A stretch of DNA of 64,000 nt from Fimicolochytrium jonesii (taxonomy: Eukaryota). The translations under genes were made by a program, and so were the position numbers. This document shows, piece by piece, positions 3,869-19,617 of the stretch (within the stretch, counting starts at the first letter, position 1; the number at the start of each line of letters is the position of its first letter). Under the pieces are notes generated by a model. It saw only the letters and a list, made by a program, of their open reading frames with translations. It did no database searches and had not been told where the DNA came from. The stretch is taken from NCBI RefSeq assembly GCF_025526975.1, contig NW_026515669.1:1860001-1924000 (forward strand), written 5' to 3'.

Positions 3869-5667
3869 ATGACCCTGCAAACGCACCTCCTCCTATCCCG
3901 CACAGCCTGCAGAGCCCGCCCACGCTCCTGTCGCTCCCTCTCCTCTCTGCCATCCCTATCAATATCAACCCATCCTCGCCTCCGCCCAACCATCCTCCGC
4001 ACCCCCCTAGACAGTTCCCCTCTGGGAATACATCGGAGACAGCATGGAACGCATAGCCATCACCATGGCGTGCGGATGGAGACGCGGGAAGGTATCAGTT
4101 TCATTTCATCACCTCGTGGAAATTGATCCGAACGGATGCTAAGATTTTAGTTTCGGCATTAGGCACGAGGGTGACGATAGCGGGGATAGGAGTCAATGTC
4201 GGGTTGACGATCGCGAAGGGGGTTGGCGGGGTGTAAGTTGAACGAGAGTCGCGTTAGGGTGCATGGGCCGGAAGATAGGGGAACCATATGTGAACGTTGC
4301 ATCTGGTGCGATTACAGGGCGTGGCAGTCTGCGTCGCTTATCGCAGAAGCCGTGCACTCGTTGAGTGATCTGCTCAGGTAACGTTCCATCTCAACGTTCG
4401 CCTATGGGTGTACCCAAAAACTGAAATGAAGCCCTTTTCCCGACAGTGATTTCGTAACCCTCTTCACCTACGGCAAAGCGCGCGCACCACCATCACAAAG
4501 GTTTCCATACGGGTTCGGCAAACTGGAGCCTGTCGGGGGGTACGAGTTCGCACTCGTCGCATCCCTGTCCGTTCACTTTCCGTGTGGCGCTAATTCCGTG
4601 TTATCATTGCCAGGCTGGTGGTATCGGCGTTACTGGTAGCCGCCGGCGCCGGGATCGCCGTGCATTCCTACGAAGTGCTTCTTCCCTTCATCATCTCCCC
4701 AACCTCCACCCCGACCCCAACACCACCCCATCATCTCCCCACCGCAGCCCTCCAAATAATGCTCCTCTCCGTCCTCTCCAAAGAAGCCATGTTCCGTTGG
4801 ACGCGTTCCGTCGCCACACGAACGCACAGTTCGGTGTTGTTGGCCAATGCGTGGCATCATCGTGTGGATGCGTTGAGTAGTCTTGTGGCGTTGGGGGGCG
4901 TGGCGGGGGGTGTGATGGGGGTTGGGTGGGCGGATGCTGTGGGGGGTGTTGTTGTTTCTGGTGGGTGATCTATGTCGTATTGGGTATGGGGTAGAAGGGC
5001 GTAGAACGGTGAGGGTGATACTTATCTGATGCGTGTGTAGGTATGATTGTGAAGGCGGGGGTGCAGGCTGGGTGGCCTTCTTTGTTGGAGTTGTTGGATG
5101 CTGGTGAGTGAGGCGTGGGGCTGATGATGTGAGGGGTGGATGGCACTGACGATTGAGTGATTTGGAACCACTAGCCGCCCCACCGGAACTCTACACCCAA
5201 ATCAACACCGCTCTCGAGTCCTTCCGCGCCCATCAGGGCCACATTACGGCCGTCCGCAATCTACGCGTGCGCAAGACGGGACCGTTCAGTTATGGTTCGT
5301 GCCCTGCAACAGATGTTTGCCTTTCTCCCACCTGAGATGATGCTTATCAATGTATTATGGTTTTCTAGCGGATATGCAAATCATCCTAACCCCGTCAACA
5401 TCGGTCTCGGAGGCTAGTCAGGTACGAAAAATGACACAACCATATTCATATTCACTTGCCCCGTTGTGAGCCCATCATCACTAAACTGGATTGTGTGCAA
5501 ATCACACCCAGATCGCGAATGACCTGCGTGAGAATCTGATGCATGCCGTCGACGGCCTGCAGGAGGTGCTTATCGAGATTCGGTGCGATGACGGGAGTGG
5601 GCCAGGGACCAGTACTATGACTACGGCACATGCGAAAGAGTATGATGGGGACGGGCATGGACACTAG
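3869..5667 (+). CDS. Mitochondrial cation diffusion facilitator (MMT1/MMT2-like metal transporter)
   Basis: Presequence plus HGTHSHHH; VNVGLTIAKG, SASLIAEAVHSLSDLLSDFV, FPYGFGKLEP, LLANAWHHRVDALSSLVAL, LRVRKTGP; stop at 5665-5667. Confidence 0.88.
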
Positions 5668-13572: not shown

Positions 13573-14290
13573 ATGGGGCAACACCACACCCCTAACCCGA
13601 CACCTCCACCATCCACCTCCCACCCCGCCCCCTCAACCCCCTCCCCCTCCTCCTCAAACGCACCACCGCAATCTCCATCACAACCACCACCACCAACCCC
13701 CGGCCTCCCCTTCTGGGAACAACGGCGCGCCGCCTGGACCGCCAACCACACGCCATACACGGAGAACCCCGCCCCCGTGACGGACCAGTGGATCAGAGAT
13801 AACCCGGCGCTGGCGGATGTGGATGCGACGGCGTATGATGCGATTTATGCGGCGCTTGTGGAGGGGAGGAGGTTTGCGAGGAGGACGCCGTTGCCGTTTG
13901 TTACTTCTGTGCTGGTAGGTTCTGGATGGGAGAGAGAGAGGGGTGGCACTGAAGGCTGGGCCGGGCACGAGGGGCAAGAATTGCTTTCGGTTGACGAGCC
14001 ATAGGCGAGCCTCGGCGAGCGTTGGAATTTCGCGAACCAAGCGGGCTTAGGGGAGTCGTGCGGTCGGGCAGGATGGTGGTTTTCATGCGTACATGCGAGC
14101 GATTCGAATATGCATCAACCAACCTCGCCCGATTTCCTTCCGTTCACAGGTCCACGGATGGAAAAAGGAAGGTCTCTGGGCACCCGCAACAGGGATAGGA
14201 GGATCGAACAGTAATCCGTACCCGCTCGCCGACTCGAATAGCAATTCGCAGAACGTCTCTTCTGGTGTCATTTCTGGGCAGCGGCAGTGA
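13573..14290 (+). CDS. DUF4050 / Gag1-like clamp domain protein
   Basis: GLPFWEQRRAAWT, YDAIYAALVEGRRFARRTPLPFVTSVL, intron, then VHGWKKEGLW. Start uncertain. Confidence 0.7.
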
Positions 14291-14518
14291 GCGAAGAGTG
14301 GAATGGGGTTGGTTTCTCTCATAGAAGGGATTGGCAAGGGGCTCTGCAACGGCCTCGACAGTGGCGGCTCGACGGGGAGAAGCATATCATATAGACAGCG
14401 GGACTGTCTACATTCGCACGGGGGGGTACAGATGCGCCATGAATTAGGGCACGCGAGGCTAACTAATAGAAGTAGGGATTCATGGAGGCGTTAAGCGCCC
14501 TAGCGTCATTAGGGTGCA

Positions 14519-14700
14519 TAGTTTCCGTTGGGTAGTGTAGTCTTTGCAACAGCTCGATATCGAAAAAGGCTGACACCCCTGCTGTTGCGGCTTTGCACTC
14601 ATCATCATTTGGTAAACTACATAATACAAGTTGCCATCATCGGCGATGCCTCCGGCAGAGGTACAATGATGTGGATGGCAGATAACCACCACGGAAAATT
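14519..14700 (-). ncRNA. Putative Fanzor omegaRNA scaffold (candidate guide continues to ~14499)
   Basis: Begins immediately after the Fanzor stop codon. Nested inverted repeats (plus-strand coordinates): TTTCCGT 14522-28 / ACGGAAA 14691-97; TGTAGT 14536-41 / ACTACA 14616-21; GCAACAGC 14546-53 / GCTGTTGC 14581-88; TGCCATC 14632-38 / GATGGCA 14674-80. Sense strand starts UUUUCCG and ends GGAAACUA. Confidence 0.7.
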
Positions 14701-17700: not shown

Positions 17701-17996
17701 AGGTTCAGTGGGCGCTGCAGACCCCTGTCCGCGGGTGAAAGCCCTCGCTGCGGCTGCTGCTGCTGCCCGTCTTCATCGCCGGAGCTCTCGCCAACCATGT
17801 CTGCAATTGCTTGGGGCAAGTGGCGATGGACAGAGGGCGGGAGCTCGAATCGTGGGGGTTGCAATAGTGTGGCTGGCAGACGTATGGGCAATCGCGGGGT
17901 AACCGGAGCAACCTTCCTCCTCTTCCGCCGTGGTGTGGTTGCTCCAGTAAAGATGCCACACCACAGGTGCCCCTGGAGCGCCTGGTGTGATGACAT
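14706..17996 (-). CDS. Fanzor1 (eukaryotic TnpB-family RNA-guided endonuclease), 7 coding exons, about 758 aa
   Basis: Manual splicing of exons 17996-17450, 17376-16867, 16357-16149, 16086-15809, 15566-15397, 15325-15127 and 15069-14706 (all GT-AG) gives 2277 nt in frame without stops. Motifs: FSAIPL, FDGSISTDGYS, RuvC-I CIDPGKRDLL, VILGDWS, RuvC-II LLDEYRTSSVC, Zn finger CPNC...CPNPEC, RuvC-III HNRDV, C-terminal RPDAFSR. Confidence 0.92.
15640..15780. repeat. 21-bp G-rich minisatellite (GGCGGGCGGAGACGGGGGGCT, ~4 copies) plus poly-G tract inside a Fanzor intron
   Basis: Tandem units are directly visible, followed by a G run at 15744-15766. Confidence 0.9.
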
Positions 17997-19617
17997 GATG
18001 GCTGTGCTGTGCTGTGCAGGCAAGTGGTGAGATCAAGGGGACCGAGCAAGGGGCCTGCTCTCGAGGAGGATCCAGGAATCCTGCTTACCTGCGATGTGTT
18101 GAAGGCTTTTAGAGGTTGGTTGGGGGTTTGCCTTGATGTGCGAGGGTGGAAGTGTGCGCAATTGTGGTTTGGTGGAACTACATAATATACCCGGTTTCTG
18201 CATGTTCAAAAGGGTCACCACGATCGCGATTGGCCTACTTCTCCACCCCTCCAACGTCTGACAGTCGGAGCGCGGGCCAGACCAGGGCAAACGACAGTGC
18301 AGCAGAATATAGGGGCGACAACGAACGCAGAGCACGAAACTAACCCTCTGTTGCCTCAACCAGTTCAACTGACGGCCACAGTGGGAGCTGCTGCTGGGAG
18401 CGCACGGGCGAAAACCCCCCTCTGTCGAGCCACGTCTGCTTTCAGAACCATGCATTCAGAGCTACGAAGTGGGGCCGGGGGGGGGGGAGCATGGGTAAAT
18501 CTATAATGCGCGCCTAGAGCCTGCCATATTGTTTGTTGTAACGGTCTGGCTACCGTTCTGTAGATGCCTGTGCAGTGTCAACCTCATCTGGGTCACATCA
18601 GAGTTAAAAAGTCTACCACAGTCCTTAATTGGTAAAACAATGCACTCTGGCTCGTTGAACTGTTGTTCACGTCGCGGTAGATCCCCTCTTTGGAGTTTCC
18701 GAGACGAGCGAGCTCTAGTTGAGGTGCGATGAAACGAGTGAACTCCTTGCTCCGCTTGCCGCTCCGACTCTCCCGGGGAAGAGGTGAAGCGGGACGTAGC
18801 GAAGCCAATGGGGCCTGCATAGAGCTAACCCACGCCGACGGCCATATCCAATTGCAGCGTAGTACTCTTCGTGCCCATTCTCCTGAATCTGTTCGTTTTC
18901 CCGTTCGCACAATCTGCAGCGTCTTGGAAGTGTGTTTCCGGTCGGTGTCGGATTGAGAGGACATGTTCCTTATTCTCTGAGTGGTCACTGAATTTGCTAG
19001 GCGCTTTGCTGGGCAATCCTGAACTCACCGGGCCGCATCGGGTACGCGGAAGCCGTCCGTCGCCTCAGAGGCAGTTTGAGCAATCCTCTGTGGAACTTCT
19101 CGAATCCAAGCCAAAAGTAAGCCGCACTATCGTCACTGAACACTTCCTCGATTCAACCGTGTCACAACGATATGTTATATATCTATGGTGCGTTTATTAT
19201 GCAGGCAATGTCCTCAGCAGCTGCAAAGGAGGCTGGCGTGGAGGGTTTTGGCGTGACGGAGGCGACAAGCGGGCGGGAGCCTCAGCGTTCGCGGGATTGC
19301 ATTCTTTGCGAATCCGGTAGAACTCACTTTACCTAGAACACAAATGACTCTTTGGTTTCTCGGTGGTCAGCGGCTTGAGAGGTCCAGTGGACAGTGGCGC
19401 CTATACACTCTGGAGGTTCCAGAACTCTCCGCGAGGTTCCCGAGAATGGAGAAGCGTGGAAAGGCCGTACTGACAGTTTGACAGGATCGCGTGAGTCGTC
19501 AGTCGCGTTGCGTCCGTCCGACAAGAGATCGACAATACAGGCAGGCACTCGTTTCCCCACCCTTTCCGTCGGGATTCAGATCGCACTCTCACAAGCATAA
19601 CGGATACACTCACAGCA

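Follow-up and report, generated by a model that had tools for sequence, protein, structure and literature searches.

A genuine omegaRNA locus, belonging to a known class of system and predicted to work like that of SpuFz1, lies in the 3′ flank of an intact Fanzor1 gene of the chytrid Fimicolochytrium jonesii. Gene and flank lie on the minus strand of the window, by which we mean the whole 64-kb stretch of DNA that was analyzed (contig NW_026515669.1, positions 1,860,001 to 1,924,000) and to which all coordinates refer. The predicted omegaRNA very likely begins at 14699, just past the stop codon, and we consider it somewhat more likely than not that its scaffold measures about 75 nt and ends near 14625, where a candidate guide (14624–14610) would start. 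The duplicated target of this guide, found on both sides of the gene, is the best lead at the locus. A previous sequence-only reading had described an omegaRNA of unusual length, a CATA target-adjacent motif (TAM) and a guide at 14518–14499; these proposals are either unsupported or undecided.

An intron-containing Fanzor1 gene

Judged from its exons and its translation, the gene upstream of the flagged stretch is an intact, intron-containing fungal Fanzor1, a predicted RNA-guided DNA cutter. It runs from 17996 to 14706 on the minus strand in seven exons separated by six GT-AG introns, and leaves an open frame of 758 amino acids. In the splice model, exon 1 (17996–17450) begins with the ATG at 17996, a start codon shared by the paralog models, and encodes a proline-rich N-terminal extension. 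Exon 2 (17376–16867) covers the REC region and matches SpuFz1 in the PDB (8gkh, E 1.2e-24), exon 3 (16357–16149) has exactly the junctions of the annotated F. jonesii protein P0229, and exons 4 (16086–15809, with the TDG motif and RuvC-I D496), 5 (15566–15397) and 6 (15325–15127) are given by the splice model together with P0229. Exon 7 (15069–14706) carries E655, a C4 zinc finger, D730 and the TAG stop codon (14708–14706), and matches SpuFz1 8gkh (E 1.3e-30); the PDB search with this exon returned only SpuFz1 and PpFz1 (E 7.3e-10), and the Pfam search just one sub-threshold match, to a Cas12f1-like TNB domain. The splicing of introns 2 to 6 agrees with P0229, since the final 410 residues of the model are identical to that protein, and a full-length F. 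jonesii paralog model is identical to the 758-residue Fanzor1 at 682 of 751 positions.

The predicted protein shares 281 of 617 aligned residues (45%) with SpuFz1. Its D496, E655 and D730 align with D383, E541 and D606 of SpuFz1, the glutamate lying just before the zinc finger, which corresponds to the RuvC D-E-D triad as defined in Saito 2023 (PMC10432273) and in a review (PMC13565253). The zinc finger (CPNC...CPNPEC) and the TDG motif of the WED domain (STDG) are both present in the spliced model. Four of the six TAM contacts of SpuFz1 are kept (Q129, Q130, R291 and Y345) while R96 and N133 are changed, the alignment around R96 being uncertain, and the magnesium ligand N385 is changed as well. 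In contrast to SpuFz1, the gene of the window is split by six introns, and its product is longer by about 110 residues at the N-terminus. This proline-rich extension (17996–17600), absent from SpuFz1, contains a basic cluster resembling a nuclear localisation signal. Introns 2 (16866–16358, 509 nt) and 4 (15808–15567, 242 nt) are long and contain poly-C tracts as well as a tandem repeat of 21 nt, and portions of them appear in mis-spliced paralog models, which indicates that they are present in other copies.

In the tree, the window Fanzor1 groups with four F. jonesii copies (100/100) and then with Gaertneriomyces P0017 (100/100), and the wider group with SpuFz1 is weakly supported (82/70); locus L002 entered the tree as a 70-residue piece and its placement was disregarded. 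The last-exon motif of the family occurs in 48 of 258 fetched proteins, all 48 of them named F. jonesii, so the family has dozens of copies. Intron-containing Fanzors are already known (Jiang 2023, PMC10530073), the Fanzor1 elements CRe-1,2,3 (PMC3627910) among them. A literature search found no link between Fanzor and Fimicolochytrium, the single paper that mentions both doing so in unrelated places, and neither the Saito 2023 nor the Jiang 2023 supplements searched contain the name; Repbase or the remaining Saito 2023 supplements may list the family. Scans of metagenome, viral and prokaryote contigs yielded distant relatives only, with at most 47% identity on the long query. One F. jonesii model, P0043, has a weak tyrosine-recombinase match (PF00589, E 5.6e-4, below the cut-off) fused to a Fanzor fragment, possibly a partner gene or a nested element.

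Leader and first stem-loop of the omegaRNA

By the definition in Saito 2023 (PMC10432273) and Xu 2024 (PMC11423790), a Fanzor1 omegaRNA opens at the 3′ end of the gene with an unpaired U-C-C leader and a first stem-loop (SL1) of about 7 bp. In SpuFz1, the protein contacts the unpaired bases U5, C6 and C7; next come SL1, a linker of 6 nt and a stem 2 that closes at A75 (PMC10432273). A corresponding segment is predicted at 14699–14671: numbered from 14699, it has U5, C6 and C7, then a hairpin at positions 8–29 whose stability stands out from that of shuffled sequence (z −3.44; 1 of 200 shuffles as good). The SL1 model used to scan the window was built from six relatives, L003 and the window itself having been removed from an initial eight rows; rows were picked by eye and relatedness was uncontrolled. 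Across the six, 86% of the cells pair and nine double-sided changes are seen, a value reached by none of 500 shuffles. Related loci have leader and loop in common and differ in their stems. The top match of the model in the 64 kb is 14699–14675 (17.4 bits, E 0.03 as a rough value; runner-up 11.6 bits). In eight held-out loci its best match lies at the gene end in three, and the hairpin of L003 is missed. An Rfam search gave a single chance-level match (E 3.5). The sole exact match to the SL1 18-mer among viral contigs (L024) was discarded, its surrounding context being unrelated.

The letters reported previously are correct: UUUUCCG at 14698–14692, ACUA ending at 14519, the 20-mer at 14518–14499 and CATA on the plus strand at 14517–14520; both ends of the flagged stretch do resemble the published ends of the SpuFz1 omegaRNA. 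Its minimum-energy fold is also multi-branched and closed by UUUCCGU/ACGGAAA, as described, but does not exceed chance: at 207 nt, 55 of 200 shuffles fold equally well (z −0.54), and at 180 nt 16 of 200 do (z −1.61). The closing stem (−15.5 kcal/mol) is matched by 89 of 556 random 230-nt window pieces and would pair off the leader, with the very bases bound in SpuFz1, together with the 5′ arm of SL1: in an RNA of 181 nt, SL1 forms with P=0.05 and U5 stays unpaired with P=0.01. For every 3′ end tested between 14640 and 14535, SL1 has P 0.51–0.96. Nor is the length unusual, as the Fz1 omegaRNAs published in Saito 2023 (PMC10432273) span 71–229 nt by their coordinates, and RNAs of 150–230 nt with extra stems appear in its supplementary table. 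What survives of an omegaRNA directly after the stop codon is the Fanzor1 3′ flank and the omegaRNA 5′ end, and not the closing stem, the CATA or the unusual length.

It is conceivable, at a very low probability, that the omegaRNA of this particular copy does not work, SL1 being a relic or the long-range stem trapping the transcript in an inactive fold. The SL1 loop of the window indeed deviates from the UURUCG pattern, several residues corresponding to SL1 contacts of SpuFz1 differ in the window Fanzor1 (W603, Y602 and R550), and SL1 is folded away in long transcripts; against this, the gene is intact and leader and stem are retained.

A direct repeat at the predicted end of the scaffold

We favour, with somewhat better than even confidence, a predicted scaffold at 14699–14625 (3′ base 14625 or 14624) laid out like that of SpuFz1, and a 15-nt candidate guide at 14624–14610, following scaffold position 75, whose first 10 nt match 18185–18176. 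The main evidence is a direct repeat whose copies flank the Fanzor1 gene. The right copy occupies 14626–14608 and the left copy 18189–18168, with 12 bp exact (14626–14615 and 18187–18176) and about 20 bp alike if one change and one gap are allowed. The left copy lies upstream of the gene, at a distance of 180 bp from the ATG, and reads TATA (18189–18186), a candidate TAM, and then the guide match. Two copies were counted where 0.05 were expected, and the local score of 28 is reached by none of 278 overlapping window pieces and by 2 of up to 5000 random pairs; a bare exact 12-mer is a weaker signal, being common to 69 of up to 2000 random pairs. In SpuFz1-like numbering, the right copy begins at scaffold position 74 (14626), and a 75-nt scaffold thus ends on TA, as does that of SpuFz1 (U74-A75). 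The likeness to SpuFz1 (PMC10432273, PMC11423790; PDB 8gkh) extends from a Fanzor1 protein, the D-E-D triad and a leader plus SL1 just past the stop to a favoured scaffold of equal length. The 3′ end itself reads UGUA, whereas that of SpuFz1 is ACUA.

Folding is consistent with this layout without singling it out. The pieces of 76 and 90 nt both adopt it at minimum energy, with z of only −0.72 and −1.12, a significance no better than that of the long fold; in the 90-nt RNA, SL1 pairs with P 0.87–0.94 and stem 2 with P 0.66, and stem 2 is missing from the minimum-energy fold when the RNA is exactly 75 nt long. The region past SL1 is unconstrained according to Xu 2024 (PMC11423790). Among 12 related loci checked, one (L002) has an end-anchored repeat, an exact 12-bp repeat whose first base is also the final one of the predicted ACTA end, with a perfect guide match of 11 nt; the ends of L002 and L003 are themselves predictions. 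A 12-mer in L019, considered as a second case, proved to be AT-rich noise. Translation of the flank, carried out in search of paralog read-through, found none.

A scaffold of about 181 nt is the principal competitor, doubtful in our view and still to be taken seriously. It keeps the boundary of the sequence-only reading with another fold, and would consist of SL1, an extra branched domain and a terminal stem ending at 14519, with the guide starting at 14518. In this case, binding by the protein would need to keep SL1 available in competition with the long-range stem, and the repeat in front of the gene would have arisen as an internal or filler duplication. In its 3′ domain (14619–14519), UAGUUUACC (14619–14611) can pair with GGAAACUA (14526–14519), a terminal stem equalled in 22 of 1276 window pieces and 46 of 1000 shuffles. 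An ACUA end is common to SpuFz1 and the predicted ends of L002 and L003, whose folds likewise place an extra hairpin ahead of the terminal stem, and the linker of L002 resembles 14629–14615 by eye. Long scaffolds are known, such as the 229-nt RNA of B. salamandrivorans (Saito 2023, PMC10432273), and 206 nt separate SL1 from the inverted-repeat end in L016. The long-RNA class that such a scaffold would join includes B. salamandrivorans Fz1 ID62 and GtFz1, which belong to other lineages and were compared by their description in PMC10432273.

Also in favour of this end, 14537–14519 resembles the right end of Spu-1, the element of SpuFz1, with 11 of 13 motif bases at 14537–14525; however, the window contains 4 matches to that 13-mer motif where 2.66 are expected, and one pattern for the likeness was drawn after the site had been seen. 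Holding SL1 together with a free leader would cost about 9.5 kcal/mol in ensemble energy, no left inverted repeat was found in the 1.6 kb upstream, and the 20-bp repeat is left unexplained. The corresponding guide (14518–14499), put forward by the sequence-only reading, has neither a duplication nor a TAM-flanked target within the 64-kb window, its one 10-nt match (4263–4254) being preceded by CCCA. The ACUA end, a UAGU/ACUA basal stem and the likeness to Spu-1 lend soft support to 14519 and its guide, which we rate below an end at ~14625. The CATA at the junction does not add to it: the CATA of Spu-1 marks the left end on the sense strand and not the right end on the antisense strand, the right junction of locus ID16 has no antisense CATA, and at 19 of the window's 215 ACTA sites the opposite strand reads CATA.

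The favoured scaffold, for its part, leaves the ACUA stem at 14519 and the Spu-like sequence to chance or to another element. The latter case can be spelled out as nesting, in which a short-ended Fanzor copy would have landed some 100 bp within one end of an older short element whose ends are Spu-like, and the plus-strand CATA at 14517 would be the left junction of that older element. Nesting would explain both end signals, CA followed by TAG is the left-end reading of Spu-1, and a weak partner end, TAGTTTCGT, lies at 18342. We nevertheless regard it as unlikely, as TAGTTTCGT shares only about 9 bases, which is near chance in 1.6 kb, the window contains no second copy, and the rebuilt empty site lacks the SL1 motif.

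With regard to its ends, the window element differs from Spu-1 in having no detected 30-nt inverted repeats and in being flanked by a long direct repeat: terminal inverted repeats of 30–33 bp with CA upstream of the left one were not found, and the frame, which in Spu-1 is single and uninterrupted, is broken by introns. The best inverted score in the 1.6 kb upstream, 18, is reached by 263 of 278 null pieces. Such a lack is also expected of a truncated copy, so this outcome fits truncation too. The first 8 nt of the Spu-1 inverted repeat recur exactly at 19129–19122 (minus strand) with GA before them, probably by chance. The protein model P0016 matches from ~18165 downward, which weakly fits a left element end there, a weak point since the start of P0016 may be spliced; a likeness of its N-terminus to 18440–18510 was dropped, being outside the top five in the window.

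Possible origin of the repeat

If the favoured end at ~14625 is right, the repeat would be a duplicated insertion site, the element would span ~18167–14627 and 14607–14519 would be flank beyond it. Processing of the Fanzor transcript would release the omegaRNA from its 3′ end. The RNA would use leader and SL1 for docking, and its last feature would be a second stem closing on TA. The complex would then cut the empty site, which presents TATA followed by the guide match, and repair would copy the element back, a transposon-restorative homing of the kind that a review (PMC13565253) describes for OMEGA nucleases, which cut the empty site. The left copy would likely be spared from cutting, as it matches the guide over 10 nt before two changes at guide positions 11–12. 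Published work on SpuFz1 (PMC10432273/PMC11423790) places its cut on the non-target strand after base 16–17 and its activity plateau at 13 nt. The repeat, equal to TA plus 17 guide bases, fits such a cut, and the perfect matches of 10 nt in the window and 11 nt in L002 fall below the plateau.

We propose, as a tentative and on balance unlikely analysis, that the repeat is the scar of Fanzor-driven copying. The nuclease would have cut the empty site about 17 bases past the TATA motif, and repair would have copied the element from its right end and halted early, leaving motif and target in front of the gene, where later changes at guide positions 11–12 would have ended self-cutting. Duplications of 7–19 bp after a fixed 4-mer, mostly at 5′-truncated copies, are described for CRe-1,2,3 in Bao and Jurka 2013 (PMC3627910), and Craig 2023 (PMC10288648) ties such duplications tentatively to Fanzor cutting. 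MCi-2 (PMC3627910) has 11–12-bp duplications and no inverted repeats, and likewise none were found at the ends of the window element. Unlike CRe, which has Helitron ends, and MCi-2, which comes with a Crypton fragment, the window element has no such ends or partner gene identified. The duplication feature is represented by one repeat in the window and one in L002. A transposase with a 12-bp stagger would leave the same repeat pattern; in that event, by analogy with Yoon 2023 (PMC10711439), the scaffold may take in the duplication, with the guide then beginning at 14614.

What the locus contributes in itself is useful and ordinary: one more intact Fanzor1, whose chytrid family is large and rich in introns, and a candidate TAM of the TATA type. 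The native role of Fanzor is a matter of speculation in Saito 2023 (PMC10432273) and Craig 2023 (PMC10288648), and with dozens of copies in one public genome the question can be addressed by plain alignment. If many F. jonesii copies show the scar, each would reveal its own TAM, guide start and cut site; left junctions made of a TAM and the copy's own guide target below the cleavable length would mean that the nuclease acts on its own genome and, if this is true across copies, would be direct genomic evidence for Fanzor homing in a eukaryote.

Related loci and neighbourhood

The Fanzor1 element is intergenic. On one side lies a plus-strand gene for a Gag1-like clamp protein (13573–14215; PF13259, E 1.5e-9), and on the other, from 19618 on the plus strand, a cysteine-rich gene with a hydrophobic start, perhaps meckelin-like. 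A scan for bacterial promoters and terminators, with models ill-suited to a fungus, came back empty.

Several related loci have ends of their own. In L016, a Fanzor1 relative, 35-nt inverted repeats with TA-CAGT ends lie at 542–576 and 4475–4509, and SL1 falls within the final part of the reading frame, with 206 nt between it and the right end. The 18-nt inverted repeat of L003 (2806–2823 and 4947–4964) could mark the true element ends, which would undo the end predicted at 4861. L009 has 135-nt inverted repeats (1721–1855 and 4446–4580) and an SL1 that overlaps the stop codon; from this arrangement, its RNA would either span about 230 nt or end inside the element. Finally, L011–L014 and L019 form one distant family, whose five copies lose their match sharply about 96 nt past the stop; as judged from this alignment, their right end is clean and their putative guides are variable.
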